Positions 3,272 to 41,557 are shown, counted from the stretch's first letter. The stretch: DNA of 64,000 bases from Nitrospirota bacterium (GCA_963840455.1 CAWIYV010000010.1:472348-536347), one strand, 5' to 3'. The notes: a model not told the origin generated them from the letters alone. Numbers and translations: made by a program.

Positions 3272-4219
3272 ATGATGCATCAGGAAACGGGACAGGAGAC
3301 CGAAGGGCGCCGCATTCTGCCTTTGAGCGTCTTGATCCTGTTGCTGGCGGCTGCATCGTTCGCACGGAACGGCATCTATCACGAGGACCTGCGCTTGTGG
3401 CAGGATGTGGTGGAAAAAAGCCCTGCAAAGGCCCGGCCCCGCTATCAACTGGGTTTCTATTACGATAAGCGGGAACACCACGAAGAGGCAGTACGGGAAT
3501 ATCGGGCAGCGATCCGGCTCGGCCCTCCGGGTCCCGTTGTCGACCGGGCGCATAATAATCTCGGGAACCTTTACGGAAAACAAGGCCGCTTTGAGGAGGC
3601 GATAGAGGAATTTCAGGCAGTCCTCCGGTATGATCCTAGGGATAGTGTCGCCCGTGCAAACCTCGGGATCATCTACGCCAAGCAGGGGAGAGTGAGTGAG
3701 GCTCTCCATGAGTTCCAGACCGCCATTGAGGCCGATCCCGGCAATACCATGGCACATTACAATCTTGGCAATGCATACCAGGAACAGGGAAGGCTCGGAG
3801 AGGCAATCTTGGCATACCAGGCGGCCCTGCGGATGGACCCCGCCCATGCCGACGCGCGTAATAACCTCGGATTGCTGTACGGGGAGCAGGGACGTTTTGC
3901 AGAAGCGATCCAGGAGTTTCAGGAGGCAATAAAAAGCCAGCCCGAGAGTGCAGAGGCATACAACAACCTCGGGATCGTCTTCGCGAAACAGGGCCGATAT
4001 GATGAAGCGATCCGCGCGTTTCAACGGGCTCTCCTGCACGGGCCTGAAAGCGCCGAAGTGCACAAAAACATCGGCATAGCGTACAGCTACCAGGGGCGCC
4101 TCGAAGACGCCATACGGGAATTCCAGACCGCGCTCCGGATCGATCCGGGACATGCCGGCGCCCGCCACCATCTGGAGAGCACGTACAAGAAATTAAGGGA
4201 TAATCGCGGCGTCAAATGA
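3272..4219 (+). CDS. Membrane-anchored TPR protein (TMTC C-terminal half only)
   Basis: GAGGAG RBS before ATG 3272; one hydrophobic helix, RNGIYHEDLRLWQDVVEKSP, then multiple A.NNLG TPRs. Confidence 0.8.
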   Translation: MMHQETGQETEGRRILPLSVLILLLAAASFARNGIYHEDLRLWQDVVEKSPAKARPRYQLGFYYDKREHHEEAVREYRAAIRLGPPGPVVDRAHNNLGNLYGKQGRFEEAIEEFQAVLRYDPRDSVARANLGIIYAKQGRVSEALHEFQTAIEADPGNTMAHYNLGNAYQEQGRLGEAILAYQAALRMDPAHADARNNLGLLYGEQGRFAEAIQEFQEAIKSQPESAEAYNNLGIVFAKQGRYDEAIRAFQRALLHGPESAEVHKNIGIAYSYQGRLEDAIREFQTALRIDPGHAGARHHLESTYKKLRDNRGVK

Positions 4220-9161: not shown

Positions 9162-9179
9162 CTGGTACAGACCTTGCTA
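9162..9179 (+). promoter_or_regulatory. Putative sigma54 (-24/-12) promoter
   Basis: TGGTACAGACCTTGCT has GG-N10-GC spacing, follows an AT-rich tract and precedes the riboswitch. Confidence 0.65.
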
Positions 9180-9250: not shown

Positions 9251-9335
9251 TTTCCGATAAAGCCAAACCTTTCGTGAGGAGGGGGCGGAAAGCACCGGGT
9301 CTTCAATCAGGAAGATGGCCGGGCCACCGAAGAAA
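9251..9335 (+). ncRNA. GEMM-I riboswitch, G20 (c-di-GMP type)
   Basis: AAAGCCAAACC-GTGA loop-GGGGCGGAAAGC...GGGTCTT...AAGATGGCCGGGCCACCG; G at 9262 precedes P2. Confidence 0.85.
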
Positions 9336-9382
9336 GAGCGCCACATCCCGTGCACCAAGATCCGCTTCCGTGTGGAGAACGT

Positions 9383-10345
9383 ATGGGAACGAGTGGACTC
9401 ATAAGAACCCCCCTCAGAATAATAATCACGATGGTGATGATGCTTACCTTTGCATTGCCCGCATTGGCAGTGGCCATCGAGGCAAACTTCCTGTATACGC
9501 TGTCCGATTTCACCGGCCCCTTTTTGATCCATGGGGGGAGGATGTTCGTTGACAAGGACCGGAACGAGACCTACGTCGTGTATCAGAATGTCGTCAGAGT
9601 GTTCAATGAAAACGGGCTGGAGATCTATCGGTTCAATGAAGAAAACAACCTCGGCAGGATCGCCGCCTTAGCAGTGGACCGGGACGGCGCCATCTTCTTC
9701 CTTTCCTATGATGATAGAGGAGTGTATGGAATCATCCGCTGCAATTACCGGGGAACGCCGAAGGGGAGGATCGAGATCGCCGGGCTCCCGTCCGATTTTT
9801 CCAACGCTGAGAAGTTTTCGCCGAGCCAGATGGTGTACCAGGGAGGACAGTTCTACCTTGCGGACACGAGTAGCCTGAGGATCGCGGTCGCCGATATGAC
9901 CGGCCAGGTGAAGAAGACCTATGACATTATCCCTCTCCTTGATCTCAAGGAAAAGGGCCGGGCCGATCTCGAGATGGGCGGCTTCAGCGTGGACAAAGAG
10001 GGCAATATGCTGTTCACCATTCCGGTCCTGTTCAGTGCTACCGTGCTCTCTCCGGAGGGGAAGGTAGCGAACTTCGGCGAACCGGGGAGCGTCCCGGGGA
10101 AATTCGGGGTTGTGTCGGACATCACAACGGACAACGTGGGGAACTATCTGGTGTCGGACAAGTTGAAATGCGTCGTCAGCGTGTATGACAAGGGCTTTCG
10201 GTTTCTCAAGGAATTCGGCGGCCGCGGGAACGAGCCGGGCAATTTGATCATGCCCCAGGTGCTGGCCGTGGACGGCAGCGACAAGCTGTATGTCACCCAG
10301 GGCGGGAACCGGGGGATCAGCGTTTTCAGGTTGATTTACAACTGA
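9383..10345 (+). CDS. Exported NHL-repeat beta-propeller protein (omcS-associated)
   Basis: Signal peptide; NHL-like motifs (FGEPGSVPGKF, FGGRGNEPGNLIMPQVLAVD); GGAGA RBS. Confidence 0.85.
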   Translation: MGTSGLIRTPLRIIITMVMMLTFALPALAVAIEANFLYTLSDFTGPFLIHGGRMFVDKDRNETYVVYQNVVRVFNENGLEIYRFNEENNLGRIAALAVDRDGAIFFLSYDDRGVYGIIRCNYRGTPKGRIEIAGLPSDFSNAEKFSPSQMVYQGGQFYLADTSSLRIAVADMTGQVKKTYDIIPLLDLKEKGRADLEMGGFSVDKEGNMLFTIPVLFSATVLSPEGKVANFGEPGSVPGKFGVVSDITTDNVGNYLVSDKLKCVVSVYDKGFRFLKEFGGRGNEPGNLIMPQVLAVDGSDKLYVTQGGNRGISVFRLIYN

Positions 10346-10400
10346 AGACAGCAGTCCACATAAAAGGAGGTGAATGCCGTCAGAGAATAAAAAAAGTGGA

Positions 10401-10450
10401 AAGCAGGCAGTAGTAAGCAGTAAGCAGTAAGCAGGAAGCAGTAAGCAGTA
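10401..10450. repeat. Heptamer tandem repeat (GTAAGCA)n
   Basis: aagcaggcagtagtaagcagtaagcagtaagcaggaagcagtaagcagta. Confidence 0.85.
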
Positions 10451-10487
10451 CGTTGTACCCATGTCGGCTAAGCCGACACACTCTATC

Positions 10488-10567
10488 CTCCGAAAAGAGT
10501 AAACCCATCGCAAGGTGGGGACACAAAGCCAACGGGTCCCGAAAGCGGGACGGCCGGGCTGCCGGAG
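10488..10567 (+). ncRNA. GEMM-I riboswitch, A20 variant (GEMM-Ib, predicted 3',3'-cGAMP)
   Basis: CTCCGAAAAGAGTAAACCCATC-GCAA-GGTGGGGACACAAAGCC...GGGCTGCCGGAG; A at 10498 precedes the GT/AC base of P2. Confidence 0.85.
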
Positions 10568-10593
10568 CAAAAAAAACTGATCTGGAGGATTTA

Positions 10594-11847
10594 ATGAAGA
10601 TCTACAAATTAAGCCTTATCCTTGTTGCTGTGGCCGCGGTAGTTGTTGGGCTGAGCGGAACCAGCTTCGCCTTCCATAGCGGCGGCGTCGCCGAATGCGT
10701 GGGCTGCCACCAAATGCACGATGCACCAGGCGCCAACCTTCTTATCGCCGCTGACCAGAGCTCGACCTGTCTGAGCTGCCATGGCGCAGCAGGCCAGTCC
10801 AGCTACCATGTTGCCACCCCCGACGCAGACATGCCCGCGGGTTCGCCGCCAGTCAATGAAGGCCCCGGCGGTGACTTCGGCTGGCTGCACAAGTCCTATT
10901 ACTTCACGATCCGTGGTGGATTGACCACCGACCTCGGCGACACCCACGGCCATAACATTATCGCTGCTGGCTACACCGGCGGCACTTACGTTGCTGACCC
11001 CATCAACGCAACGGCCCCGGGAGGCACGTTCCCGGGAGGCCAGCTCTCCTGCGTCTCCTGCCATGACCAGCATGGTAAGGGCCGTTGGACGACGGCCGGC
11101 ACCTATAGCAAGACCTCCGGCGCTATCTACACCTCCGGTTCCTATGGTTCCATACCCTCAACGTTCGGCCCCACGGGCGAACTTTTGTCGACGGGTGTGT
11201 ACCGCCTGCTCCGTGCTGCCGAGGCTGTTGACGGCGTGACCTTCCCCGCCCTCCCGCCGGTAGCAGTTGTTCCGAGCACCTACAACAGGTCAGAGTACTT
11301 CTTCCAGACCCGCACTGCCTACGGCTCCGGTATGTCAGACTTCTGCGCAACCTGTCATCCTGACATGCACGACACCGCAGGTATTCTCCGTCACCCGGCC
11401 GGCCAGACCATGAGCGGCGCGGTCCAGGGCAACTACAACAGCTATGTGAAAACAGGTGCTATGACCGGCTCCGCGACCACCTCGTACCTGTCGCTGGTTC
11501 CGTTCGAAGAAGGCCAGGCCTACAGCACTGCCGCCATCGGCGTTCTGAAGAGCCATGCCCAGATCAACGATTCCAATCTGAACGGCCCGGGCGCTGGTAC
11601 CGTGCCTGCAACGGCGACCGTAATGTGCCTCTCCTGCCACAGGGCGCATGCGTCCGGCTGGCCGGAAATGCTTAAGTGGAACCCCGAAGTTACGACCATC
11701 ACCGTCGCTGGCGCCTATCCTACTGGCAATGACGCAGGCTGGGGCCGCAGCGCAACGGAAGTATCGAAAGCCTACTATGACAAGAACGTAACGAAGTGGT
11801 CCGCCTATCAGCGCCAACTCTGCAACAAGTGCCATGCGAAAGACTAA
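10594..11847 (+). CDS. omcS: OmcS-like hexaheme c-type cytochrome (nanowire subunit), copy 1
   Basis: Signal peptide then FHSGGVAECVGCHQMH; 6 CxxCH; PGGDFGW, LSLVPFEEG, CLSCHRAHASG and C-terminal LCNKCHAKD as in OmcS; GGAGGA RBS. Confidence 0.92.
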   Translation: MKIYKLSLILVAVAAVVVGLSGTSFAFHSGGVAECVGCHQMHDAPGANLLIAADQSSTCLSCHGAAGQSSYHVATPDADMPAGSPPVNEGPGGDFGWLHKSYYFTIRGGLTTDLGDTHGHNIIAAGYTGGTYVADPINATAPGGTFPGGQLSCVSCHDQHGKGRWTTAGTYSKTSGAIYTSGSYGSIPSTFGPTGELLSTGVYRLLRAAEAVDGVTFPALPPVAVVPSTYNRSEYFFQTRTAYGSGMSDFCATCHPDMHDTAGILRHPAGQTMSGAVQGNYNSYVKTGAMTGSATTSYLSLVPFEEGQAYSTAAIGVLKSHAQINDSNLNGPGAGTVPATATVMCLSCHRAHASGWPEMLKWNPEVTTITVAGAYPTGNDAGWGRSATEVSKAYYDKNVTKWSAYQRQLCNKCHAKD

Positions 11848-11869
11848 CGCATGCTGAAGAAGTAGCGCC

Positions 11870-11904
11870 AGGGAGGATCGGCAGATGCCGGTCCTCCCTT
11901 TTTT
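11870..11904 (+). terminator. Intrinsic terminator after omcS
   Basis: GGGAGGATCGGC-AGAT-GCCGGTCCTCCC-TTTTTT. Confidence 0.85.
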
Positions 11905-11986
11905 ATCATCGAACGTGCATTTTCCCGCTGTTTCTGGTAACATGCTGCCTGAACCATTCCAGCCCGGTCTTGGCTCACCGAGCGGA

Positions 11987-13285
11987 ATGATTGACCTCAT
12001 GAAAGTCACCACCATAATTCCGATCATGATGCTCCTGATTCTCTGTATGAGACCGGACAACGCCGCGTCCGCCTTTCATGACGGCGGTGTCGGTGCCTGC
12101 GATGCCTGCCATTCCATGCATAACGCCTCACCATTAGCAGGCGACAGTCTGTTGAAGTCATCGGACCCGAGCTCGACCTGTCTCTATTGCCACCAGAATA
12201 CGGGCGACATCGGACCGACGAGCTACCATGTCAGCACCTCTTTATCCGACATGCCGCCGGGCGCTCCACCCAAGCAGCTTACCCCGGCCGGCGATTTCGC
12301 GTGGTTGAAGAAGACCTTCACCTGGCTACCCAGCGCCAACGGGCTTTTGCAGTTCAGTTACGGCGACCGGCACGGCCACAATATCATCGCCAATGATTTT
12401 CAGTATGCCGTGGACATGACCAACAGCACGGCCCCCGGGGGCGCCTACCCCGCGTTGAGCCTCACCTGCATCAGCTGTCATGACCCGCACGGCAAATACC
12501 GCAGGGACGCAGTCGGCTCGATCGCCACGACCGGCACTCCTATTCAGGGCTCGGGGTCCTATGCCTCCAGTGCCGGCCCGCAGGCCGGATCCTCGGTCGG
12601 CGTGTACCGGCTGTTGGGCGGCAAGAACTATCATCCCAGGAACCTGCTCGGCAGTTTCGCTTTTCAGAACGACCCGCCTGCTGCCGTCGCTCCGGACGCG
12701 TACAACAGGTCCGAGACCGGGACCCAGACCCGCGTGGCCTACGGCTCGGGGATGTCCGATTGGTGCCAGAACTGCCATACGACCATGCATACCATCGTCT
12801 CATCGGGAACATCAACTATTCCGAAGACCCATCCCGTCGGGAGTCTCGCCAAGCTAGGACCGACGGTGTCCACCAACTATAATATGTATGTCAAGACCGG
12901 AGTCCTCACGGGTATCGTGAACACATCGTTCCTTTCCCTCGTCCCCTTTGAGGAGGGTACCAGTAATTATTCCGCGCTCAAAGCGCATGCTCGAAGCGAT
13001 GATTCCTATCTTTTCGGGCCCGATTCGGGCAGCTCCCAAGTGATGTGTCTCACCTGCCACCGGGCCCACGCCTCGGGCTGGGACCACGCGACCAGGTGGA
13101 ACACCAATACGGACCATATCGTCGTCAACGGGTTCTATTCCCAAGATGGCCAAACATATCAGCCCTATGGGCAGGGACGCACGGAGCTGGAGGCGCAGAA
13201 GGCCTACTACGACATGCGGGCAGGCCGGTTCGCCCTTAATCAGGATACGCTCTGCCATAAATGCCATGGAGGGGCCCTCCCGTGA
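11987..13285 (+). CDS. OmcS/OmcT-family hexaheme cytochrome paralog
   Basis: FHDGGVGACDACHSMH; 6 CxxCH; CHDPHGKYRR, TRVAYGSGMSDWC, CLTCHRAHASG. Start 11987 or 11999. Confidence 0.9.
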   Translation: MIDLMKVTTIIPIMMLLILCMRPDNAASAFHDGGVGACDACHSMHNASPLAGDSLLKSSDPSSTCLYCHQNTGDIGPTSYHVSTSLSDMPPGAPPKQLTPAGDFAWLKKTFTWLPSANGLLQFSYGDRHGHNIIANDFQYAVDMTNSTAPGGAYPALSLTCISCHDPHGKYRRDAVGSIATTGTPIQGSGSYASSAGPQAGSSVGVYRLLGGKNYHPRNLLGSFAFQNDPPAAVAPDAYNRSETGTQTRVAYGSGMSDWCQNCHTTMHTIVSSGTSTIPKTHPVGSLAKLGPTVSTNYNMYVKTGVLTGIVNTSFLSLVPFEEGTSNYSALKAHARSDDSYLFGPDSGSSQVMCLTCHRAHASGWDHATRWNTNTDHIVVNGFYSQDGQTYQPYGQGRTELEAQKAYYDMRAGRFALNQDTLCHKCHGGALP

Positions 13286-17011: not shown

Positions 17012-17578
17012 GTGAATGTCAAAAAAATCATATCGCTGTTAATGCTCGTCGGTCTTGCAGCCTGTGCCCGTCCGACAAGCGGCGTGTTCCGCGACCAGAA
17101 CATGGATTTTGGGGCGATCCAGAACATTGCCGTAATGCCCCTTTCGAACCAGTCGCGGGAGCAGACCGCTGCTGACCGGGTGAGGGACGTATTCATCAAT
17201 AAGCTCTTATCCACCGGCGCGGCGTATGTACTTCCTATCGGTGAGGTGAAGCGGGGGATCGCGAGGGCGGGGATCTCCGATGCGACGGCCCCCTCGCCCG
17301 AGGAAATCGTAAGGTTTGGGGGCATTGTGAAGGCTGACGTCGTGATCGTCGGTTCGGTAAAGGAGTATGGTGAGGTGAGGTCAGGCACCTCTTCCTCCAC
17401 GTCCATCGCCCTGAGCATGCAGATGCTCGAAGCGCAGACGGGTCGGGTTGTATGGGCCGCATCGTCCACCAAGGGAGGTATCACATTCGGCGACCGTCTC
17501 TTAGGCGGGGGCGGCGAACCTATGAATGTAGTTACCGAGAAGGCTGTTGATGACATTATCGATAAACTGTTTAAATAG
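17012..17578 (+). CDS. Lipoprotein, CsgG/DUF799/LpoB-like fold
   Basis: GGAGG RBS, GTG start, LAAC lipobox, IAVMPLSN...ADVVIVGSV...TGRVVWAAS. Confidence 0.75.
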   Translation: MNVKKIISLLMLVGLAACARPTSGVFRDQNMDFGAIQNIAVMPLSNQSREQTAADRVRDVFINKLLSTGAAYVLPIGEVKRGIARAGISDATAPSPEEIVRFGGIVKADVVIVGSVKEYGEVRSGTSSSTSIALSMQMLEAQTGRVVWAASSTKGGITFGDRLLGGGGEPMNVVTEKAVDDIIDKLFK

Positions 17579-20500
17579 AAGGGGTCTTTATGTTGTCGTT
17601 GCTGGTTTCCTTGTTTTAACAGCGTGCGCGGGCAGCAGAAATTCCGTGCTGATCAACCCTCCCGAGAAACATCTGCACGTCGCCGTATATCCAGTCGATA
17701 ACCTGAGCAATGCCGTTGTGCCTTTGGACGAGATCCGGCAATCGCTGGTCCAGCAGTTGAAGGCAGCAGGGGCTGATGTGCTTGATGACGCCGCGCTCGA
17801 CCAGTTTATGAAGAAACACCGTGTCCGCTATACCGCAGGTCTGGATGCCGCGACATCAGAGTCATTCAGCAGCGAGATCGGTGTTGACGCAGTTCTTATT
17901 ACCTCGGTGGAGGCCTACAGCGAGACCTATCCTCCCGCGATCGCCCTCATCTCCAGGCTGGTTTCTGCCGGACCCAGACCGTCGGTTTTGTGGGCTGACA
18001 GCATCGGAATGACAGGCGCCGATTCCCCCGGCCTCCTCGGGCTTGGCCTGATTGAAGATCCTAAAGTCCTGCGGCACAAGGCAATGGTACAGCTGGGCGC
18101 CTTATTAACGAAGTATCTTGCAGGGGAGAAGGACCGTATCCACGGCGGGCGGAAGAGCTTTGGACCGAGAGCATCATACCGCTCCCCTATCATCGGCGCG
18201 AACTTTCGGCAGAATGCCGTCGGTTTTGTGAACAGCAGTTCCAGCGGGGATGAGGGGAATGGACCGGTCAGGTTGGATGTCGCACTCACCGCTGAGAGCA
18301 GAGCGCCGGTGACGGTGGAGTATGCGGTCACGGGCGGCAAAGCGACGGAGGGGAGGGATTATGTCGTGAAGGGGAACACCCTCACCTTTGCGCCCGGAGA
18401 GACGCTCAAGAGCATTGAGGTCGACATCAGACACAACGGTGTGAATACGGGAGACGAGACCGTCGAGGTGAGCCTGAAGAACCCGGCGGGCGCGGCCTTG
18501 GGCAGCACGGCGGTCCATACCTATACCATCATCGACAGGGATCCAGAGCCTGCGGTTACGTTTGCGGTACCGAGCCAGCAGGTGCGGGTAAAGGAGAACG
18601 CGGGGAAGGCGACGATCGGCGTGGAGCTATCGGCCGTGTCGGGCAGGGATGTGACCATCCCGTTCATGGTGGGCGGGACGGCGAAGACACCGTCGAACTA
18701 CACCATCACGCCGGGCCCGCTCGTGATCAAGGCGGGACAGAGGAGCGCAGCGATCACGGTGAATGTCACGGACAAAGGGTTGAACGAGGACGCCAAGACC
18801 GTGGTGGTGAGCATGGGCGTGCCGACGAACGGGGTGCAGGGGAAGATTGTGCAGAGCTCTGTGACCATCGTCAACACCAGCCCCGATCCCACGGTTACGT
18901 TCACCGTAGCGAGCCAGCAGGTGAAGGAAAGCGCAGGGACAGCGGCCATCGGTGTCGAGCTCTCGGCAATTTCAGGCAGGGACGTGACCGTGCCGTTCAT
19001 GGTGGGCGGGACAGCGAAGACGCCGGAGAACTTCACCATGCCTTCAGGTCCGGTGGTGATCAAGGCAGGGACGAAGGGCACGACGGTCCCGGTGCAGGTG
19101 AAGGCCAACGGGGTGAACGAGGACGACAAGACCGTGGTGGTGAGCATGGGCGTGCCGACGCACGCAGCCCAGGGAAAGACGACCACGAGCACGGTGACCA
19201 TCGTCGACACGGACCCCGTCCCCGCGGTATCGTTTGTGAGCGCGAGTTCGAGCGGAGAGGAGAAGTCCGGTCCTGCGCGTCTTGAGGTGAAGCTCTCCGC
19301 GGCGAGCGGGAAGCCGGTGACGGTCGAGTACGGGGTGAAGGGCGGGACAGCGGTCTTGGGCAAGGACTACGCCCTTCCGGCCGGCGTCGTGAGCTTCGAG
19401 CCCGGAGAGACGAGCAAGACCCTGGTGGTGGACATCAAGGACCACGGCATCTACGACGACGACAAGACCCTTGAGATCACCCTGAAGAACCCGAAGAACG
19501 CGGTGCTGGGAAGCACGGCGGTCCATACCCATACCATCATCGTCAGCGGCGGACCCGGGCAGATCAAGAAAGCCGCGGGGACAGAGATCAAGGACGCGAC
19601 CAAGCCGCTCATCATGCTTGCCATGGCGGGTACTTCGGGGGACTCTGCAATCATGACGGGTCTGCTGGCGGCCGAAACAGAGGAGCGGAGAGAGGAGATG
19701 CCGTTGCCGGCAATCTCGTTCCTCTACGCGAATTCCCGCGGCGATGAGAAGATGAGTTCCGTTCTTCTCCCGGTGGGCCTCTCCGCTCCGAGCGGAAAGC
19801 CGGTGCGGGTGGAGTACGAAGTGACGGGCGGGACAGCGGAGGCCGGGAAGCAGTATGTTTTGAAGGGGACCAGCCTGACCTTTGCGCCGGGCGAGACGGT
19901 GAAGGAGATCGAGGTCACGGTAAAGGATGACGGTGTGAACCGTGACGACACGACCGTTGCGGTAAGCCTCAAGAACCCGACGGGCGCGGTGCTGGGCGAG
20001 ACGGCAATGCATACCTACACCATCCTGGACAGCAGCCCCGAGCCGGCGGTGACGTTTACCACAGCGAGCCAGCAGGTGAAGGAAAGCGCAGGGACAGCGG
20101 CCATCGGTGTCGAGCTCTCGGCAATTTCAGGCAGGGACGTGACCGTGCCGCTCCTGGTGAGCGGGACAGCGAAGACACCGTCGAACTACACCATGACGCC
20201 GGGTCCGGTGGTGATCAAGGCAGGGACGAAGAGCGCGACGGTCCCGGTGCAGGTTGCGGCCAACGGGGTGAACGAGGACGACAAGACCGTGGTGGTGAGC
20301 ATGGGAGTGCCGACGCACGGTGTGCAGGGGAAAACGACCACGAGCACGGTGACCATCGTCGACACGGACCCCGTCCCCGCGGTATCGTTTGCGAGCGCGA
20401 GTTCGAGCGGAGAGGAGAAGTCCGGCCCTGCGCGTCTTGAGATGAAGCTCTCCGCGGCGAGCGGGAAGCCGGTGTGGGTCGAGTACGGGGTGAAGGGCGG

Positions 20501-23500
20501 GACAGCGGTCTTGGGCAAGGACTACGCCCTTCCGGCCGGCGTCCTGAGCTTCGAGCCCGGAGAGACGAGCAAGACCCTGGTGGTGGACATCAAGGACCAC
20601 GGCATCTACGACGACGACAAGACCCTTGAGATCGCCCTGAAGAACCCGAAGAACGCGGTGCTGGGCGGAAGCCCGGTCCATACCCTGACCATTGTGCACA
20701 CCGCACCCCTGCCGGCAGTGGCATTCCTGCATGCAGGCTCCCGGGGTACGGAGAAGTCCGGTTCCGCGCGTCTTGAGGTGCAGCTCTCTTCGGCGAGCGG
20801 AAAGCCGGTGCGGGTGGAGTACGAAGTGACGGGCGGGACAGCGGAGGCCGGGAAGCAGTATGTTTTGAAGGGGACCAGCCTGACCTTTGCGCCGGGCGAG
20901 ACGGTGAAGGAGATCGAGGTCACGGTAAAGGATGACGGTGTGAACCGTGACGACACGACCGTTGCGGTAAGCCTCAAGAACCCGACGGGCGCGGTGCTGG
21001 GCGAGACGGCAATGCATACCTACACCATCCTGGACAGCAGCCCCGAGCCGGCGGTGACGTTTACCACAGCGAGCCAGCAGGTGAAGGAAAGCGCAGGGAC
21101 AGCGGCCATCGGTGTCGAGCTCTCGGCAATTTCAGGCAGGGACGTGACCGTGCCGCTCCTGGTGAGCGGGACAGCGAAGACACCGTCGAACTACACCATA
21201 ACGCCGGGTCCGGTGGTGATCAAGGCAGGGACGAAGAGCGCGACGGTCCCGGTGCAGGTTGCGGCCAACGGGGTGAACGAGGACGACAAGACCGTGGTGG
21301 TGAGCATGGGAGTGCCGACGCACGGTGTGCAGGGGAAAACGACCACGAGCACGGTGACCATCGTCGACACGGACCCCGTCCCCGCGGTATCGTTTGCGAG
21401 CGCGAGTTCGAGCGGAGAGGAGAAGTCCGGTCCTGCGCGTCTTGAGGTGAAGCTCTCCGCGGCGAGCGGGAAGCCGGTGTGGGTCGAGTACGGGGTGAAG
21501 GGCGGGACAGCGGTCTTGGGCAAGGACTACGCCCTTCCGGCCGGCGTCCTGAGCTTCGAGCCCGGAGAGACGAGCAAGACCCTGGTGGTGGACATCAAGG
21601 ACCACGGCATCTACGACGACGACAAGACCCTTGAGATCACCCTGAAGAACCCGAAGAACGCGGTGCTGGGCGGAAGCCCGGTCCATACCCGGACCATTGT
21701 GCACACCGCACCCCTGCCGGCAGTGGCATTCCTGCATGCAGGCTCCCGGGGTACGGAGAAGTCCGGTTCCGCGCGTCTTGGAGGTGCAGCTCTCTTCGGC
21801 GAGCGGAAAGCCGGTGCGGGTGGAGTACGAAGTGACGGGCGGGACAGCGGAGGCCGGGAAGCAGTACGTTTTGAAGGGGACCAGCCTGACCTTTGCGCCG
21901 GGCGAGACGGTGAAGGAGATCGAGGTCACGGTAAAGGATGACGGTGTGAACCGTGACGACACGACCGTTGCGGTAAGCCTCAAGAACCCGACGGGCGCGG
22001 TGCTGGGCGAGACGGCAATGCATACCTACACCATCCTGGACAGCAGCCCCGAGCCAGCGGTGACGTTTACCACAGCAAGCCAGCAGGTGAAGGAAAGCGC
22101 AGGGACAGCGACCATCGGTGTCGAGCTCTCGGCAATTTCAGGCAGGGACGTGACCGTGCCGCTCCTGGTGAGCGGGACAGCGAAGACACCGGGAAACTTT
22201 ACCATGACTTCGGGCCCGGTGGTGATCAAGGCAGGGACGAAGAGCGCGACGGTCCCGGTGCAGGTTGCGGCCAACGGGGTGAACGAGGACGACAAGACCG
22301 TGGTGGTGAGCATGGGCGTGCCGACGCACGGTGTGCAGGGGAAAACGACCACGAGCACGGTGACCATCGTCGACACGGACCCCGTCCCCGCGGTATCGTT
22401 TGCGAGCGCGAGTTCGAGCGGAGAGGAGAAGTCCGGCCCTGCGCGTCTTGAGGTGAAGCTCTCCGCGGCGAGCGGGAAGCCGGTGACGGTGGAGTACGGG
22501 GTGAAGGGCGGGACAGCGGTCTTGGGCAAGGACTACGCCCTTCCGGCCGGCGTCCTGAGCTTCGAGCCCGGAGAGACGAGCAAGACCCTGGTGGTGGACA
22601 TCAAGGACCACGGCATCTACGACGACGACAAGACCCTTGAGATCACCCTGAAGAACCCGAAGAACGCGGTGCTGGGCAAGACGACCATTCATACTCATAC
22701 CTTGAGCAAAACAAATTCAGCGCCCGCAGCAGTTTCCTCCACGGCCGAGGGCCGGCAGATGAAGGAAACCTCCACTCTTGTGACCATCACTGTTGAGCCT
22801 GCTGCTGATCCGGGAAAGGATGCGATCGTCCCCGCGGTTACGTTTGCGGGCGCGAGTTCGAGCGGAGAGGAGAAGTCCGGCCCTGCGCGTCTTGAGGTGA
22901 AGCTCTCCGCGGCGAGCGGGAAGCCGGTGTGGGTCGAGTACGGGGTGAAGGGCGGGACAGCGGTCTTGGGCAAGGACTACGCCCTTCCGGCCGGCGTCCT
23001 GAGCTTCGAGCCCGGAGAGACGAGCAAGACCCTGGTGGTGGACATCAAGGACCACGGCATCTACGACGACGACAAGACCCTTGAGATCGCCCTGAAGAAC
23101 CCGAAGAACGCGGTGCTGGGCGGAAGCCCGGTCCATACCCTGACCATTGTGCACACCGCACCCCTGCCGGCAGTGGCATTCCTGCATGCAGGCTCCCGGG
23201 GTACGGAGAAGTCCGGTTCCGCGCGTCTTGAGGTGCAGCTCTCTTCGGCGAGCGGAAAGCCGGTGCGGGTGGAGTACGAAGTGACGGGCGGGACAGCGGA
23301 GGCCGGGAAGCAGTATGTTTTGAAGGGGACCAGCCTGACCTTTGCGCCGGGCGAGACGGTGAAGGAGATCGAGGTCACGGTAAAGGATGACGGTGTGAAC
23401 CGTGACGACACGACCGTTGCGGTAAGCCTCAAGAACCCGACGGGCGCGGTGCTGGGCGAGACGGCAATGCATACCTACACCATCCTGGACAGCAGCCCCG

Positions 23501-26500
23501 AGCCGGCGGTGACGTTTACCACAGCGAGCCAGCAGGTGAAGGAAAGCGCAGGGACAGCGGCCATCGGTGTCGAGCTCTCGGCAATTTCAGGCAGGGACGT
23601 GACCGTGCCGCTCCTGGTGAGCGGGACAGCGAAGACACCGGAGAACTACACCATGACGCCGGGTCCGGTGGTGATCAAGGCAGGGACGAAGAGCGCGACG
23701 GTCCCGGTGCAGGTTGCGGCCAACGGGGTGAACGAGGACGACAAGACCGTGGTGGTGAGCATGGGAGTGCCGACGCACGGTGTGCAGGGGAAAACGACCA
23801 CGAGCACGGTGACCATCGTCGACACGGACCCCGTCCCCGCGGTATCGTTTGCGAGCGCGAGTTCGAGCGGAGAGGAGAAGTCCGGTCCTGCGCGTCTTGA
23901 GGTGAAGCTCTCCGCGGCGAGCGGGAAGCCGGTGTGGGTCGAGTACGGGGTGAAGGGCGGGACAGCGGTCTTGGGCAAGGACTACGCCCTTCCGGCCGGC
24001 GTCCTGAGCTTCGAGCCCGGAGAGACGAGCAAGACCCTGGTGGTGGACATCAAGGACCACGGCATCTACGACGACGACAAGACCCTTGAGATCGCCCTGA
24101 AGAACCCGAAGAACGCGGTGCTGGGCGGAAGCCCGGTCCATACCCTGACCATTGTGCACACCGCACCCCTGCCGGCAGTGGCATTCCTGCATGCAGGCTC
24201 CCGGGGTACGGAGAAGTCCGGTTCCGCGCGTCTTGAGGTGCAGCTCTCCGCTCCGAGCGGAAAGCCGGTGCGGGTGGAGTACGAAGTGACGGGCGGGACA
24301 GCGGAGGCCGGGAAGCAGTACGTTTTGAAGGGGACCAGCCTGACCTTTGCGCCGGGCGAGACGGTGAAGGAGATCGAGGTCACGGTAAAGGATGACGGTG
24401 TGAACCGTGACGACACGACCGTTGCGGTAAGCCTCAAGAACCCGACGGGCGCGGTGCTGGGCGAGACGGCAATGCATACCTACACCATCCTGGACAGCAG
24501 CCCCGAGCCAGCGGTGACGTTTACCACAGCAAGCCAGCAGGTGAAGGAAAGCGCAGGGACAGCGGCCATCGGTGTCGAGCTCTCGGCAATTTCAGGCAGG
24601 GACGTGACCGTGCCGCTCCTGGTGAGCGGGACAGCGAAGACACCGTCGAACTACACCATGACGCCGGGTCCGGTGGTGATCAAGGCAGGGACGAAGAGCG
24701 CGACGGTCCCGGTGCAGGTTGCGGCCAACGGGGTGAACGAGGACGACAAGACCGTGGTGGTGAGCATGGGCGTGCCGACGCACGGTGTGCAGGGGAAAAC
24801 GACCACGAGCACGGTGACCATCGTCGACACGGACCCCGTCCCCGCGGTATCGTTTGCGAGCGCGAGTTCGAGCGGAGAGGAGAAGTCCGGTCCTGCGCGT
24901 CTTGAGGTGAAGCTCTCCGCGGCGAGCGGGAAGCCGGTGTGGGTCGAGTACGGGGTGAAGGGCGGGACAGCGGTCTTGGGCAAGGACTACGCCCTTCCGG
25001 CCGGCGTCCTGAGCTTCGAGCCCGGAGAGACGAGCAAGACCCTGGTGGTGGACATCAAGGACCACGGCATCTACGACGACGACAAGACCCTTGAGATCAC
25101 CCTGAAGAACCCGAAGAACGCGGTCCTGGGAAGCACGGCGGTGCATACCCGTACCATCATCGTCAGCGGAGAGTCTGAGCAGACAACGGGCGTTTCCCGC
25201 CCGGTCCAACAGGCAAAGGCGACCACGGGGGCAGCGACCAAGAACGCGACCATGCCGCTCATGATGCTTGCCATGGCAGACATTCCCGGGAACTCCACAA
25301 TTATGCCGGTACTGATTGCAGCCAAAACAGACGAGCGGAGAGTGGGGATTCCCAAGCCTACGGTGGCGTTCCTGTATGCGATCTCCCGCGGCTACGAGAG
25401 GGTAAGTACTGTCCGGATTCCTGTGGCGCTTAACGCGGTAAGCGGCAAGCCGGTAACGGTGGAGTATGCGGTAAGGGGCGGAACAGCGGTTCGAGGTATG
25501 AACTACACTCTGAAGGACGGAGGGCTAACCTTCAAACCCGGAGAGACGGTCAAGACCATTGAGGTCAGTATAAAGGATAACGGTGTGAACGAGCCTGACA
25601 GGACCGTCGAGTTGAGCCTGATGAACCCGAAGAACGCGGTCCTGGGCAACACAGCGGTCCATACCTATACCATCATGGATAACGACCCCGAGCCCGCTGT
25701 TACGTTCACGGTGGCGGGCCAGCAGGTGAAGGAGAGCGCGCGGAGCGTTTCCATCGGGGTGGAGCTTTCTACGGTGTCGGGCTGGGACGTAGCGGTGCCG
25801 TTCCTGGTGACCGGGACTGCGAGGACGCCGGGGAACTACTCCATCGTGCCTAGTCCGCTGGTGATCAAGGAAGGCCAGCGGAGTGCTTCGATCACGGTGC
25901 AGGTTGCTGATAACGGTCTGAACGAGGATGACAAGACCGTAGCGGTGAGCATGGGGGTGCCGACGCACGCGGTGCAGGGAAAGGTCGTCGCGAGCACCGT
26001 GACCATCGTTAACATCGATCCCGAGCCAGCGGTGACGTTCACGATGGCGGGCCAGCAGGTGAAGGAGAACGCGGGGAAGGCGACCATCGGTGTTGAGCTT
26101 TCGGCAGTGTCGGGCAGGGACGTGATCGTGCCGCTTATGGTAAGCGGAACAGCGAAGACACCGGAGAACTTCGCCATGCCTTCGGGCCCGGTGGTGATCA
26201 AGGCAGGGACGAAGAGTGCGACGATCCCGGTGCAGGTGGTGGCCAACGGGGTGAGCGAGGACGACAAGACCGTGGTGGTGAGCATGGGAGTGCCGATACA
26301 CGCGGTGCAGGGGAAAACGACCGCGAACACGGTGACCATTGTCAATACGGATCCTGAGCCCACAGTATCGTTTGCGAGCGCGAGTTCGAGCGGAGAGGAG
26401 AAGTCCGGCCCTGCCCATCTTGAGGTGAAGCTCTCTGCGGCGAGCGGCAGGCCGGTGACGGTGGAGTATGCTGCCTCGGGCGGCACGGCGATACAGGGGA

Positions 26501-27489
26501 AGGACTACGCCCTGCAGGGAGGTCCGCTGACCTTCGCTCCCGGCGAGACGGCCAAGGAGATCCTGGTCGACATCAAGAACCACAATATCTACAGCGAGAG
26601 CAAGACCAAGACCATCGAGGTGGCCCTGAAGAACGCTTCGGGCGCGGTCCTGGGCAGCAGCGCGGTGTTTGCCTACACCATAGTCAACAATCATATGAAG
26701 CCGACGGTCGTAATCCGAACCGCAAACCAGCGCATCAGAAAGAGCGCAGGAAGACTGAACATCACTGTCCAGCTATCAGAAGTTTCCGGAAAAGACGTGA
26801 CGGTACCCTTCACGGTCAGCGGCACAGCGATTCAGGGAAAAGACTTCGCCATTACCCCGAGCCCGGTCGTGATCAGAGCGGGGATGCGGAGTATGGAGAT
26901 CGTGATAACCATGAAGGACAATATCCCGGTCGAAGCTGATAAGACGATCGAAGTGAGGCTGTCGAACCCGGACAACGCATTCCTCGGGTTGACCGGGGTA
27001 TACCGCATAGTCATCGTGAAGGATGCCATTCCCACCATTGCCGTTGTTCCTTTTTTCACCACAAGCACGAAGAAGAATGCCGGCGACATCATGGCGTTAC
27101 AGTTTGTCAAAGAATTAAAGAAACAAGAGGACTTCGTGGTGATCGAGCCGGGTGTAGTCAGGCAGCAGTTTCTGGACATGAGGGTCATCATGTCTGAAGG
27201 GGTTTCATCTGCCGATATCGACCTGATCACCAGCAAAATCGATGCAGACCTGATCCTGGCCGGGCAGGTAATGGATTACCAGGATGACATAGCGTTATAC
27301 GGCAAGCCGAAAGTGGCTTTTTCCGTCATGTTGATCGACAGATCGAGCAAGAAGATCATCTGGGCATCCAGGAGCTCCAATAAGGGAGATGACGCGGTCA
27401 CCCTGTTCGATTGGGGAAGCGTCAATTCGGCCAATGAGATGGTATCGGAGATGGTGCGGGTACTCACAAAGAGGGTGGTAACATGGTGA
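17550..27489 (+). CDS. Giant lipoprotein (~3,310 aa): CsgG/DUF799-like domain, ~25 Calx-beta domains, second CsgG/DUF799-like domain; +1 frameshift at ~21781
   Basis: LTAC lipobox; VAVYPVDN at the N-terminus and IAVVPFFT at the C-terminus; repeats GGTA..GKDY, LTFAPGET.K.I.V.I.D; ORFs 17547-21941 and 21697-27489 join when one G is removed (cttgGaggtg vs cttgaggtg in sister repeats). Confidence 0.85.
18880..25160 (+). repeat. Near-identical intragenic repeats with a 1005-bp (three-domain) period
   Basis: Identical antisense ORFs recur at 20186/21191 and 23646/24651 (offset 1005). Confidence 0.9.
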
Positions 27490-27560
27490 GCAGTTATTGT
27501 AATTTTTTTTGTTCTAGGATATAATGCTCCAATTTCGTGCATATTGTCATGTGACACGCA

Positions 27561-29378
27561 ATGAGAGGTGAAATGATGCTGAAGAAATGGTTCATAACAA
27601 CCGTAGCGCTGATGTTCTTCCTGGTTGCCGCCATGACGGGATTTTCATCAGACCAGAAGCCAGTGACCCCTGCAGAGAAAACGGGCGGAGCGCAGAATCC
27701 GGGGGTATCAGCAGGCGGCATGGTCATTATCGTAAAGGATCCCCGCTCGTCCACGACGGTAACGGTTCCCTTCGATTCCACGGTACACGATGATCTCCCT
27801 GTTGCCGTGGTGAACGATGTGCCGATTACGGTGGATGATCTCAAGAATGCGATCGCCGCTGCCCATGAAGAAGGGCATGAGGGCAAGAAGGAAACGACGA
27901 CTCAGGCGCCCAAAATAGATTTTAATGAACTGCTGCAGCGCATGATCAATGTGGAGCTTGTCATCCAGGAGGCAAAGAGCATCGGTCTCGACGAATTGCC
28001 CGAAGTACAGGATCCTATGGATGTCTTCTCAAGGGTGTCCCTGCGGGGCCTCTTGCGGGAAGATGTCGCGAAAGATATTACGGCAAATGAAGACGAGGTC
28101 GAGAAGGTCTATCGAGGGAACGTGAGGGAAGTGAGGACGAATACGGCTTTTTTCGAAAAGGAAAAGGCTGCGAAGAAGGCCGTTAGAGAGATCAAGGCAG
28201 GAAAAAGCTTTGACGATGTGATCGCAAGGGGGAAAAAGGATGAGACGGTAAAAGGGGCCGACGTAGGGAACTATATAAAATTCAAAGATCTCAACCCGGC
28301 GATAGCAGCAGCTCTTTCAAAAATGAAGGTCGGTTCCGTAAGCCCTGTTACGAAGATCGCAATGTCGGACAACAAAACATACTTTGCCGTCTTCCGGCTG
28401 GACGATGACCGGTTAGCAGAAAGCCCCGAAGCAAAAGAGCAGGCCCGGCAAACAGTTCTCCAGAGCAAGATAGATAAAGCTATGGAGACATTGGGCAATT
28501 CCTTGTACAAAAAATATGTGAAAGCGGATAAGAAGCTGATTGAAAGTCTGGATTACGGACCGCAGGGCGAGGGACTCGAGAAGCTCCTGGAGGACCAACG
28601 GGTCGTGGCCGAGATCGAGGGAGACCAACCCGTTACGGTGGCGCAACTGTCCCAGGCGATGCAGGAAAAGTTCTACCACGGGATGAAGAAGCTGAAAGGG
28701 GAAAAGATGATCAGGACCAAGCATGACGTCCTGGAAAGCCTCGTAAAGAAACGCCTGTTCCTGCTGGAGGCAAAGAGGCGGGGACTTGACAAAACAGCGG
28801 CATACAAAAATATGATGGAGGAGTACGAACGGAATATTTTGTGGAGCGCTTTCATTCAGAAGGTTGTTGTACGGGACGTGAAACTGCGGGATGAGGACAT
28901 GAGAGCCTACTACCATGATCATGCCGGCGATTACCTGTCCGACAAAATGATCAAGATCCGAAGTCTCGCATTCGGGAAAGAGACAGATGCCGTAACAGTG
29001 CTCGAGAAGCTCAGGAAGGGCGCGGATTTTAACTGGACCAAGGCCAATGTCGAAGGCAAGCTGGATGCCGGCACAAAGGACCTCATGACCTTTGATGAAG
29101 AGCTGGTGCCGATCACCACAATGGCCCCGGATGTGCAGAAAGCCCTCTCTGGAGTCAATGCCGGGGATTTCCGGCTGTATGAAAGCCCGCAGGGCCATTT
29201 CTATGTTCTGTACATAATGAACGTGGTGCCTCCTGTGCAGCAGCCGTTCGAGAATGTCCGGGTGGCAATCCGAAACCAAGTGTTCAATGAGAAGCTGGGT
29301 GAAGCAGCGAACGAGTGGATCCGCAAACTGAGAAAATCCGCCGATATCAAGGTTTATCTGGCAGGTCCTGAGAAATAA
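27561..29378 (+). CDS. SurA/PpiC-like periplasmic foldase with two parvulin-like modules
   Basis: Signal peptide; VAVVNDVPIT, EIKAGKSFDDV, MKVGSVSPV, LRKGADF, ESPQGHFYVL, WIRKLRKSADIKV. Confidence 0.75.
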   Translation: MRGEMMLKKWFITTVALMFFLVAAMTGFSSDQKPVTPAEKTGGAQNPGVSAGGMVIIVKDPRSSTTVTVPFDSTVHDDLPVAVVNDVPITVDDLKNAIAAAHEEGHEGKKETTTQAPKIDFNELLQRMINVELVIQEAKSIGLDELPEVQDPMDVFSRVSLRGLLREDVAKDITANEDEVEKVYRGNVREVRTNTAFFEKEKAAKKAVREIKAGKSFDDVIARGKKDETVKGADVGNYIKFKDLNPAIAAALSKMKVGSVSPVTKIAMSDNKTYFAVFRLDDDRLAESPEAKEQARQTVLQSKIDKAMETLGNSLYKKYVKADKKLIESLDYGPQGEGLEKLLEDQRVVAEIEGDQPVTVAQLSQAMQEKFYHGMKKLKGEKMIRTKHDVLESLVKKRLFLLEAKRRGLDKTAAYKNMMEEYERNILWSAFIQKVVVRDVKLRDEDMRAYYHDHAGDYLSDKMIKIRSLAFGKETDAVTVLEKLRKGADFNWTKANVEGKLDAGTKDLMTFDEELVPITTMAPDVQKALSGVNAGDFRLYESPQGHFYVLYIMNVVPPVQQPFENVRVAIRNQVFNEKLGEAANEWIRKLRKSADIKVYLAGPEK

Positions 29379-29406
29379 AAAACCGTGAGATAGTCTGAGG
29401 AGAACC

Positions 29407-31386
29407 ATGCATACCATACACTCAAAACAGAAAATTCTTCACCTTGTACTGTTCCTTCTTCTGGGCGGGGCGGTTTTTCTCGCCGCGACCACCCAGGCGC
29501 TTGCACAGAAGAAATTTGAAAAGAAGGAGTGTCTCGAATGCCATAAAAAATTTGCCGACAAGTATCTTGACATGAAGAATGTGCACCGCGTGGTGAAAGA
29601 GAAAAAATGTGAGGACTGCCATCTCCGGCACGGCAAAGTTCCTACTCTGCTCCTGAAGAAACCCCAGAATGATCTCTGCTATTCGTGCCACCCCAAGGAT
29701 AAAATGGGCCTGGACAAGGCAAAAATGCACACGGCGGTGCGGGCCGGCACGTGTACGAACTGTCATGATCCCCATGCGTCACAGATGCCCCACCTGCTCA
29801 AGCAGGAAGGCGCGGCCCTCTGTTACCAGTGCCACCAGAAGGAGAATTATGAGAAGAAAGTTACGCATAAAACCCTGAAGACCGACGGCTGCAAAGCATG
29901 TCATCTTCCCCACGGCGCCGATTTGGACAACCTGCTCACCAAGGCGGAGCCGGCCCTGTGTCTCGACTGCCACAGCAGCGGTTCATCGTCATTCAAGAAG
30001 GCGCACAACGGGTACCCCGTGGACGGCAAAACCTGCTCACGCTGCCATAACCCCCACGCTTCGTCGGAGCCAAAGCTCCTGAAGGCGAGCGTTCACAACC
30101 CCGTTGCCTCCTCGAGCTGCGATTCGTGCCACAACCCTGCCGGGTCCGAGAAACCCTTTGCTACGGCGCAACAGGGAGGCGACCTCTGTTTCCAGTGCCA
30201 TGACGCGTCGGCGCTGAAGGCCGGAGGCACGGTCGAACATCCTCCGTTCAGTGGCGGGATGTGTCTTTCCTGCCATGATCCGCATTCCTCGGAGAATCCG
30301 AAGCTGGTTGCCGAGAAAGGCAATAAGCTCTGTTTCGGATGCCATCCGGACAAAGAGGCGAAAAAAACCTTTGGCCATGCAGCGGTCTCGAGCGGGAAGG
30401 GGTGCTTGTCCTGTCACGCGCCCCATGCAGCAAAGAACAAGAATCTCCTGATCGCGAAAGAAGGGGAGATCTGCTTCACCTGCCACGCAAAGACCCAGGA
30501 GCTGAAGAAGGCGAAAGACGTCCATACGCCGTTTGCCAAAAATATGTGCAGCTCGTGCCACAATCCGCACGGCTCCGATTTTATTGCTATGACGCGGAAC
30601 CGGATGGACACGATCTGCTATTCGTGTCATACCAATGCCGAAAAGGAGTTTCTGAAAGCCTATACCCATAAGCCCGTAAGCACTGCAGCGTGCTATGTAT
30701 GCCACAATCCCCACGGCTCGAATGAGGGGAAGCTCCTGAAAGTGTCGGCATCGGCCCTCTGTGCGCAATGTCATGGTGAGCTAATGAAAAAGGCAGGCAC
30801 CGGAGGGGCCAATCATCCTCCCTTCCAGGACGAGCAGTGTCTTACCTGCCATGATGCCCATGCGAGCAATATCAGCGGGATGATCGTTGCGAAACAGGAC
30901 GTACTCTGCTTCCAGTGCCATACGAAACTGCAGCAGGAGATGGGGACCGGAAAGAGCAAGCATGCCCCAATGATGACGGGCGAATGCACCCAGTGCCACA
31001 GCCCCCACAAGTCAAAGTTGGCAAAACTCCTCGTAGTGGAAAGTCCCGATCTGTGTTTTACCTGTCATAAGAACATAAAGGAACGCTTGGGGAAGGATAT
31101 AACCCATCCGCCGGCGGCGAGAGATTGCCTGCGGTGCCACCTGCCGCATTTTTCGAAGGACCCTTCGCTGATGGCGCAGCCGTTATCCGCATTATGCGGT
31201 GAATGCCATGACCTGAACGGAAGTTCTTTTGCGAAGGCCCATATCGGCATCAAGGCTGCTGTGATGGATTGCATGAGCTGTCACGATCCGCATGCTTCGA
31301 AGGACCCGAAACTGTTCAAAGCAAACATCCATCCTCCCTTCGCCGCACGATCGTGCGATGATTGCCATATAGGAGAAAAGAAATGA
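29407..31386 (+). CDS. 26-heme periplasmic c-type cytochrome (doubled CxxCH family)
   Basis: Signal peptide; 26 CxxCH counted, with CxxCHxPH...LCxxCH pairs. Confidence 0.92.
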   Translation: MHTIHSKQKILHLVLFLLLGGAVFLAATTQALAQKKFEKKECLECHKKFADKYLDMKNVHRVVKEKKCEDCHLRHGKVPTLLLKKPQNDLCYSCHPKDKMGLDKAKMHTAVRAGTCTNCHDPHASQMPHLLKQEGAALCYQCHQKENYEKKVTHKTLKTDGCKACHLPHGADLDNLLTKAEPALCLDCHSSGSSSFKKAHNGYPVDGKTCSRCHNPHASSEPKLLKASVHNPVASSSCDSCHNPAGSEKPFATAQQGGDLCFQCHDASALKAGGTVEHPPFSGGMCLSCHDPHSSENPKLVAEKGNKLCFGCHPDKEAKKTFGHAAVSSGKGCLSCHAPHAAKNKNLLIAKEGEICFTCHAKTQELKKAKDVHTPFAKNMCSSCHNPHGSDFIAMTRNRMDTICYSCHTNAEKEFLKAYTHKPVSTAACYVCHNPHGSNEGKLLKVSASALCAQCHGELMKKAGTGGANHPPFQDEQCLTCHDAHASNISGMIVAKQDVLCFQCHTKLQQEMGTGKSKHAPMMTGECTQCHSPHKSKLAKLLVVESPDLCFTCHKNIKERLGKDITHPPAARDCLRCHLPHFSKDPSLMAQPLSALCGECHDLNGSSFAKAHIGIKAAVMDCMSCHDPHASKDPKLFKANIHPPFAARSCDDCHIGEKK

Positions 31387-32672: not shown

Positions 32673-32676
32673 TGCC

Positions 32677-33567: not shown

Positions 33568-33728
33568 ACTTCGATAGTTCCGGCAGCCTGGTATCACCTT
33601 CTTGGAACCGGGGAAATGTCTGAAGACCTCTCTTTGCGAGAGCGCAGCTTACGTGATGCGCTCTCGTTCTTCTTTTGGGGATCGTCGGTCATCATACCGC
33701 CTGATTCGAACTCGTTAAGGGCAAGATT

Positions 33729-34860: not shown

Positions 34861-34962
34861 TGCCCCGCACCTTGCTGTACCGCGGTTGTTTTCAGGGGCA
34901 ACGAAAGCACTCACTCGCAAAACGATCATACCAGCAGGTTGGGTCTTCATCAGTTTTATCCG

Positions 34963-41504: not shown

Positions 41505-41557
41505 TAGCAAAGTACGACTATAAGGGCTATGTATATCCATGTAAGGGATCTCTCGTA

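Follow-up and report, generated by a model that had tools for sequence, protein, structure and literature searches.

Which signals decide when the OmcS-family cytochromes of this locus are made, and does their synthesis call for one cyclic dinucleotide or for two? The DNA analyzed, hereafter the window, is a stretch of 64,000 nucleotides from a Nitrospirota bacterium (GCA_963840455.1, CAWIYV010000010.1:472348-536347) that contains two similar modules, in each of which an NHL-like beta-propeller gene is followed by an omcS gene and both genes are preceded by a GEMM-I riboswitch aptamer. The initial annotation had proposed that a cyclic di-GMP (c-di-GMP) aptamer at the operon head and a 3',3'-cyclic GMP-AMP (cGAMP) aptamer directly before omcS form a two-messenger AND gate. 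The arrangement that we consider probable is a two-tier control in series, clearest in module 2, with a transcriptional switch at the head and a translational switch at omcS, and with cGAMP, c-di-GMP or both as possible ligands of the second tier.

The Rfam covariance models (cmscan, gathering thresholds) placed six GEMM-I aptamers in the window, all of clan CL00126 and on the + strand, with E-values between 6.4e-15 and 6.9e-08 and no seventh GEMM-I match at E ≤ 1, which bears out the six aptamers described at first. All of them belong to GEMM-I by gathering score, five being best with RF03167 (59.9–71.4 bits, gathering 59, two of these scores at most 2 bits above the cut-off) and one with RF01051 (54.5 bits, gathering 35). 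Module 1 opens with head aptamer 1 (9253–9332, 60.8 bits), followed by NHL-like gene 1 (9383–10345), the omcS-proximal aptamer 2 (10489–10567, 59.9 bits) and the gene of a hexahaem cytochrome of the OmcS family, omcS-A (10594–11847; PDB 6ef8, E = 1e-93). Module 2 repeats this order with head aptamer 5 (53545–53622, 71.4 bits), NHL-like gene 2 (53708–54670), aptamer 6 (54787/8–54866) and omcS-D (54888–56144), whose product is 82% identical to cytochrome A. Between the modules, the tandem aptamers 3 (37858–37942) and 4 (38064–38148) precede omcS-C (38310–39566; PDB 6ef8, E = 1.8e-92), the open reading frame (ORF) of which begins at 38298, with the likely ATG at 38310. All of these genes lie on the + strand. 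The NHL-like protein 1 has a signal peptide and 320 residues, and its copy in module 2 resembles it (95% identity, from residue 24 on); the family matches of both are weak (PF01436, 21.1 bits with the cut-off at 20; PF08450, 23.6 bits with the cut-off at 26.3).

Position 20 was taken as the last unpaired nucleotide 5' of helix P2, which is position 10 of the RF03167 model, and the numbering of the pocket (G20 before P2, A47 in the junction after P2 and C92 next to P1) is that of the literature. This base is G in four of the six aptamers (9262, 37867, 38073 and 53554) and A in the other two (10498 and 54797), so that the initial annotation, which had read G on the NHL side and A on the omcS side, was right to the base. 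The junction A's and the C adjoining P1 are the same in all six, and the hallmark of the GEMM-Ib class, an A replacing G20 in a GEMM-I fold, is present at 10498 and 54797. With respect to gene context, G20 aptamers stand before the NHL-like genes, A20 aptamers before omcS-A and omcS-D, and the G20 tandem pair (G at 37867 and 38073) before omcS-C; the third OmcS gene (38298–39566) is thus found behind G20 aptamers only, as had been proposed. The family RF03167 bears the name c-di-GMP-I-GGC, taken here to designate a binding-site variant. At model position 37 its consensus is G, against A in RF01051, and all the window aptamers carry A at this place. The better RF03167 score is therefore due to overall sequence likeness and, judged by their sequence, the window aptamers are canonical G- or A-pocket GEMM-I aptamers and not the GGC variant.

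The repetition of the pattern in both modules, to which the initial annotation had drawn attention, is real but not independent. Positions 9446–11907 and 53771–56206 form one segmental duplication (88% identity over 2471 nt) that spans the NHL gene from about residue 22, the A20 aptamer, and omcS with its terminator; both A20 copies come from this duplication and therefore represent one event. The head aptamers 1 and 5 are 83.5% alike and their flanks do not align. Relatives were collected by searching one genome from each species with the four OmcS paralogues, aligned, as query, which gave a sample of 73 loci (L numbers below). A covariance model built from the six window aptamers (R1, with which aptamer 2 scores 99.9 bits, being itself part of the model) recovered 23 more aptamers in the 73 loci, in concordance with Rfam on 26 of them: the 13 model-negative loci gave no Rfam match, and the 13 model-positive loci gave the same 14 matches. 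The NHL gene lies directly upstream of OmcS in 45 of the 73 loci, and 16 of these 45, carrying at least six phylum labels, have an aptamer between NHL and omcS.

The head type of aptamer is defined by G20, a P2 closed by two C-G pairs (also seen in head aptamer 1), and a long hairpin with a U-run behind it. In three of the four window G20 aptamers (53545, 37858 and 38064) the aptamer's own 3' half is the 5' arm of a terminator, and this terminator is the minimum free energy (MFE) fold. The hairpins are found at 53607–53646 (T-run to 53651, the whole element covering 53545–53651), at 37927–37967 (followed by U6; element 37858–37973) and at 38133–38174 (followed by U7; element 38064–38181), with z-scores of the terminator fold of -6.1 (none of 200 shuffles as good), -4.3 and -2.8, respectively. 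The same holds for both relatives of this subtype, in which the terminator is also the MFE (L001:2190, z = -4.6; L014:2445, z = -3.6). These riboswitch terminators were found by folding and are missed by a simple terminator scan. A ligand-bound aptamer would prevent termination and, on this model, the head aptamers at 53545, 37858 and 38064 should therefore be transcriptional ON switches, with c-di-GMP as the ligand indicated by the pocket base. The 37858/38064 pair is like an ordinary tandem c-di-GMP-I doublet, of which 347 are reported (PMC9481103), with two G20 aptamers and a terminator for each. The NHL-omcS modules differ from such doublets in that their aptamers lie about 1.2 kb apart, have a gene between them and are unlike in the pocket base. 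In L001, a head-type aptamer with its terminator (2190–2297) is 85% identical to window positions 53546–53651 and sits downstream of omcS, before a different ORF than in the window; from these sequences, the aptamer and its terminator seem to be a cassette that shifts from gene to gene.

The omcS-proximal type has a P2 closed by G-C and U-A pairs, and AUCC is conserved as its 5' flank. From the end of the aptamer to the OmcS-family gene there are 26 nt for the aptamer at 10489 and 21 nt for that at 54787. Continued into the first bases of P1, the flank gives AUCCUCC, to which the omcS Shine-Dalgarno (SD) sequence GGAGGAU, 10–20 nt past the aptamer, is complementary. In module 1 this anti-SD strand occupies 10485–10491, its 3' end being the 5' strand of P1, and its partner lies at 10584–10590, before the start codon at 10594. 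In module 2 the anti-SD GAUCCUCC (54784–54791) and aptamer 6 make up one element (54784–54866, + strand), and the SD GGAGGGG is placed at 54875–54881, before the start codon at 54888. The anti-SD:SD pairing is the MFE of both A20 leaders (-40.9 kcal/mol for 10470–10600 in module 1 and -40.4 kcal/mol in module 2), better by 3.8 and 0.6 than the folds with P1 enforced (-37.1 and -39.8 kcal/mol). In folds of the complete leaders the pairing appears again, for module 1 (260 nt) in the centroid and for module 2 (230 nt) in MFE and centroid alike. The helix has a 5-bp core, and the two flank positions next to this core are paired in 18 and 17, respectively, of 21 omcS-proximal aptamers; three related loci show a double change from A-U to C-G. 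Cognate anti-SD:SD duplexes surpass non-cognate ones in stability (-10.40 versus -9.24 kcal/mol), a value reached by 3 of 10,000 permutations over 22 aptamers with relatedness uncontrolled. Since the anti-SD and P1 share three bases, ligand binding should free the ribosome-binding site, and the folding model thus predicts a translational ON switch.

In the mechanism that we favor, a ligand-bound head G20 aptamer (53545, 37858, 38064) would let the polymerase pass its terminator. At omcS, AUCCUCC would pair with the SD in the absence of ligand, and ligand would lock this strand in P1 and leave the ribosome-binding site free. For module 2, and perhaps for module 1 as well, the output of omcS would then require two steps, first read-through at the head and then the translational release of omcS, provided that NHL and omcS are co-transcribed, which we infer. 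The A20 pocket would accept 3',3'-cGAMP and probably c-di-GMP too, and the gate would be of the kind "c-di-GMP AND (cGAMP or enough c-di-GMP)" rather than a clean two-messenger AND. The six aptamers, their position-20 bases, the duplication and the pattern among relatives are observed directly; the directions of the two switches are read here from predicted folds and the ligands from the pocket base.

Several observations speak against this arrangement. Head aptamer 1 (9253–9332) shows neither a terminator nor a significant alternative fold, and its MFE keeps the aptamer (z = -1.4); with no platform at 9253, the first tier is therefore unsupported in module 1. The MFE of the module 1 leader cut at 10455–10610 contains neither P1 nor the anti-SD:SD helix. 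This helix is mostly conserved rather than covarying, the match of GGAGG to CCUCC is partly expected because P1 and any SD supply it, and a flank-only shuffle test was not significant (888 of 10,000 shuffles reach the observed value). No head aptamer was seen upstream of NHL in the 45 related loci with this gene order, at least six of which have less than 600 nt of upstream sequence; the combination of head and internal aptamers is unique to the window in this sample, and the series layout is without comparative support. Finally, in L046, which has no NHL gene, the same leader with SD-like box, hairpin and aptamer lies ahead of omcS in an intergenic region of its own. As this leader stands alone, it can be a complete 5' untranslated region, and an omcS-specific start or processing site may be present in the window. 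A platform for the 9253 aptamer acting through the ribosome-binding site of NHL gene 1 was also considered, and dropped when the pairings found by eye proved weak and the fold no better than shuffles.

The most serious of the alternatives dispenses with the second messenger. Both tiers would respond to c-di-GMP, and the A at position 20 would be tolerated or would lower the affinity, so that omcS is released at higher c-di-GMP than the head, or else the exchange would be near-neutral. Both bases occur in the relatives. The base is G in 13 of their 16 intercistronic aptamers and A in three (L004, L007 and L040), all three without any head aptamer. When the 21 OmcS genes that follow such aptamers (6 A, 15 G) are placed on a tree, G/A requires six changes, at least four of them forced by well-supported branches, and the two states are not clustered (six changes versus a shuffle mean of 5.4). 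No pyrimidine is seen at the position, which fits frequent exchange between tolerated purines, although lineages that alternate between two real messengers would be expected to show only purines as well. The nearest relative, L001 (80% DNA identity to module 2), has nearly the same aptamer with G at position 20. L040 carries G20 and A20 aptamers of the translational type (252–331 and 3796–3873) before different OmcS paralogues of one cluster. The binding data available for the exchange are in line with weakened rather than abolished c-di-GMP recognition: the G20A mutant of Vc2 binds c-di-GMP at 53 nM and cGAMP at 120 nM, c-di-GMP binding by the native G20 form being picomolar (PMC6140456). As to the source of a second messenger, the search for Hypr GGDEF cyclases that the initial annotation had suggested was run on the window, which is 64 kb of the genome only, and neither a GGDEF nor a nucleotidyltransferase cyclase domain was found in the 39 of its ORFs that were scanned (Pfam). 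The lack of a cGAMP synthase in a segment of this size agrees with a single messenger, and against it stands the statement that cGAMP-making enzymes are broadly distributed in bacteria (PMC8835794). Taken together, we give the one-messenger reading a real but less than even chance.

A second alternative does away with the gate instead. The head aptamer would control NHL only, and omcS would be a separate unit, governed by its own aptamer alone and starting either at a promoter of its own or at a 5' end produced by processing at the conserved hairpin. The argument turns on the NHL-omcS interval, in which no sigma-70-like promoter, no terminator-like site and no sigma-54-like motif (strict and 2-mismatch scans) was found in either module. 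The absence of promoter-like sites of both types, which extends from the NHL stop to the aptamer and to the NHL 3' end, and of a terminator after NHL counts against separate units, and the NHL stop lies 20–50 nt before the leader in most spacers, which fits an operon. On the other hand, the leader is self-contained, being composed of an SD-like box, a purine-rich stretch, a hairpin, the anti-SD and the aptamer, and in L046 it lies in an intergenic region with a sigma-54-like motif (by eye). The stable hairpin just 5' of the module 1 switch points the same way, and the cell presumably requires much more of the filament subunit OmcS than of an accessory beta-propeller. With these points on both sides we regard two independent units as possible and rather unlikely, and return to a common transcript with two tiers as the preferred reading.

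The elements of this spacer deserve a separate description. The SD-like box AAGGAGGTGA (10364–10373, + strand) is conserved and follows shortly after the NHL stop, with a second window copy at 54689–54698. Of 15 NHL-to-aptamer spacers inspected, 14 have a box of the AGGAGG type, most commonly AAGGAGGUG, the exception being L008 with GGGGGUG, and AAGGAGGUGA or a similar box lies 20–50 nt past the NHL stop in most spacers (those of L001, L002, L004, L005, L007, L011, L015, L020, L022, L036, L040 and L061 among them). It is also found in L046, at about 3335, where no NHL gene lies upstream. The box is kept as an RNA sequence, the short ORF behind it varying in length and sequence among loci, and it is not paired with the anti-SD in the leader folds. 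The spacer of module 1 further contains a 7-nt tandem repeat, AAGCAGT, in 7.1 copies (10401–10450, no strand assigned), which module 2 and L001 lack; in L040 a comparable short repeat, rich in purines, occupies this place (about 3700–3760). The GC-rich hairpin uGUCGGC-uaa-GCCGACa (10462–10478, + strand), present in both MFE and centroid and placed 7 nt before the anti-SD, could mark a 5' end or a processing site of the omcS message. Similar hairpins with other stems were recognized by eye in about 11 of 19 regions upstream of omcS-proximal aptamers; RNAalifold returned no consensus structure for these 19 regions, the alignment being poor. A small hairpin 7–10 nt before the anti-SD is seen in L046, L011, L036, L040, L005, L073, L002, L004 and L015, and the stems differ by locus (GUCGGC, GCCGG, UAUUGG).

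Upstream of the G20 aptamers, the sigma-54-like motif GGTACagaccTTGCT (9164–9178, + strand) lies 75 nt before head aptamer 1 and is suggestive only, and another one (37822–37836, + strand) lies 22 nt before the tandem aptamers. The strict pattern GGYAYN5TTGCW has three matches in the window, the third being within omcS-A, against 0.73 expected (5 of 100 shuffles reach three). With two mismatches allowed the pattern is not enriched (25 matches against 30 expected), and no sigma-54 activator domain was detected among the window ORFs scanned.

The strict form of the gate put forward in the initial annotation supposes that the head senses c-di-GMP only, the A20 aptamer 3',3'-cGAMP only, and that NHL and omcS share one transcript; OmcS A and D would be made only in the presence of both messengers and subunit C with c-di-GMP alone. 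A at position 20 is indeed the mark of cGAMP-binding GEMM-Ib aptamers (PMC6140456, PMC9481103), and in Geobacter Gmet_0970 a single A20G change turns cGAMP selectivity into c-di-GMP selectivity (PMC6456294). Selectivity for cGAMP does not follow from the mark, since the A20 class is called widely bispecific and one natural A20 aptamer has a 15-fold preference for c-di-GMP over cGAMP (30 nM versus 463 nM; PMC6140456). The omcST riboswitch of G. sulfurreducens is itself reported to respond to both ligands, and its operon, the least affected one, drops 2–3 fold without the cGAMP synthase GacA (PMC6456294). In the window, the gate draws on the G/A pattern of the six aptamers, on the retention of A in both duplicate copies despite 12% divergence, and on the prediction, for module 2, of two different ON platforms in series. 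It is opposed by the missing platform of head aptamer 1 and by the lack of a GGDEF or other cyclase domain in the 39 ORFs. The relatives add the two bases before different OmcS paralogues in the L040 cluster on the one hand and, on the other, the G in the orthologous aptamer of the nearest relative, at least four unclustered G/A changes among the 21 orthologues, and the occurrence of A20 where there is no head aptamer. What survives of the proposal is the G/A pattern, A20 as the mark of GEMM-Ib and, in module 2, the predicted pair of ON platforms in series. The two-messenger claim hangs on one nucleotide that does not guarantee selectivity and that flips among orthologues, and we judge the strict AND gate to be improbable.

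The control of OmcS by GEMM-I as well as GEMM-Ib riboswitches is already known, the association of GEMM with OmcS dating from 2007 (PMC1950547), and it is the NHL-aptamer-omcS layout and the platform types that differ here. The window shares with the Geobacter GEMM-Ib and omcST switches a GEMM-I fold with A in the pocket, the position before an OmcS-family cytochrome and, by prediction, an ON-type logic. It differs from them in the predicted sequestration of the ribosome-binding site, the Geobacter switches described using termination platforms (PMC6456294), and further in having a Nitrospirota-related host, an aptamer between an NHL-like gene and omcS, and a G20 aptamer ahead of the operon. 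In Desulfobacca acetoxidans, a 7-kb region holds three c-di-GMP-I, one c-AMP-GMP and three adenosylcobalamin (AdoCbl) riboswitches, the A variant having gained cGAMP affinity with little loss of c-di-GMP affinity (PMC9481103). Here too closely similar G- and A-variant GEMM-I aptamers occupy one neighborhood with ORFs between them. Each cyclic-dinucleotide aptamer of D. acetoxidans is combined with an AdoCbl OFF switch into a NOT A AND B gate, whereas the window has G and A aptamers in series, maybe in one operon, with two predicted platform types and no AdoCbl element. Table 2 of the tandem-riboswitch review (PMC9481103) lists no c-di-GMP/cGAMP gate, and a literature search returned no description of the NHL-aptamer-omcS layout, of a riboswitch gate for these two ligands or of a Nitrospirota Hypr GGDEF protein.

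Around the two modules the window has the appearance, by its gene content, of an OmcS-type cytochrome-nanowire island, and the closest sequenced relatives of its host are Nitrospirota. This is no Geobacter setting: in the 73-locus scan the best-matching locus belongs to a Nitrospirota metagenome-assembled genome (75% identity), loci of about 50% identity come from Nitrospirota, Schekmanbacteria, Rokubacteria and Acidobacteriota, and a Geobacter origin was rejected, the Geobacterales OmcS loci being about 40% identical. The gene order is conserved in the related loci, with NHL first, then OmcS in one to several copies, then a beta-propeller and a 766-aa protein. An intrinsic terminator (11870–11904, + strand) with a 13-bp stem followed by T5 lies 3' of omcS-A. 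A hairpin with a T-run 3' of omcS-D (56173–56201, + strand) was read by eye as a terminator, the scan giving it on the - strand only. Downstream of this strong terminator (11870–11899 in the terminator scan), a fourth OmcS gene (about 11999–13285) has no aptamer, is the window paralogue closest to G. sulfurreducens OmcS (PDB 6ef8, E = 2.2e-124) and follows a sigma-70-like site matching 10 of 12 positions (11991–12018); its expression may be independent of cyclic dinucleotides. The regions 17547–36888 and 41399–53218 resemble an extracellular electron-transfer island. They contain genes for a pair of giant proteins with Calx-beta repeats (1464 and 1930 aa), for a SurA-like peptidyl-prolyl isomerase, for two multihaem cytochromes with 8–12 paired CXXCH motifs and for a PDZ protein, a third NHL-repeat gene (32428–33567) and genes for at least seven proteins of 570–770 aa with TPR repeats at the C-terminus.

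OmcS-type filaments export electrons, and how their synthesis is switched on is poorly known beyond Geobacter. The window ties nanowire genes of a Nitrospirota-related genome to cyclic-dinucleotide riboswitches, with an aptamer at the omcS ribosome-binding site that recurs across several phyla. Were the strict gate true after all, c-di-GMP and cGAMP would for the first time be found combined in a riboswitch gate, and riboswitch-read cGAMP signaling would extend outside the Geobacter group; nanowire subunits would be made only with both pathways active, and the second input could be retuned by one G/A change. If G and A do stand for two messengers, the modules would be a compact natural case of integration at the RNA level, and the recurrent flips a route of rewiring by single nucleotides. 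If there is one messenger, the locus would provide a clear case against reading the ligand of a GEMM-I aptamer from position 20 alone.

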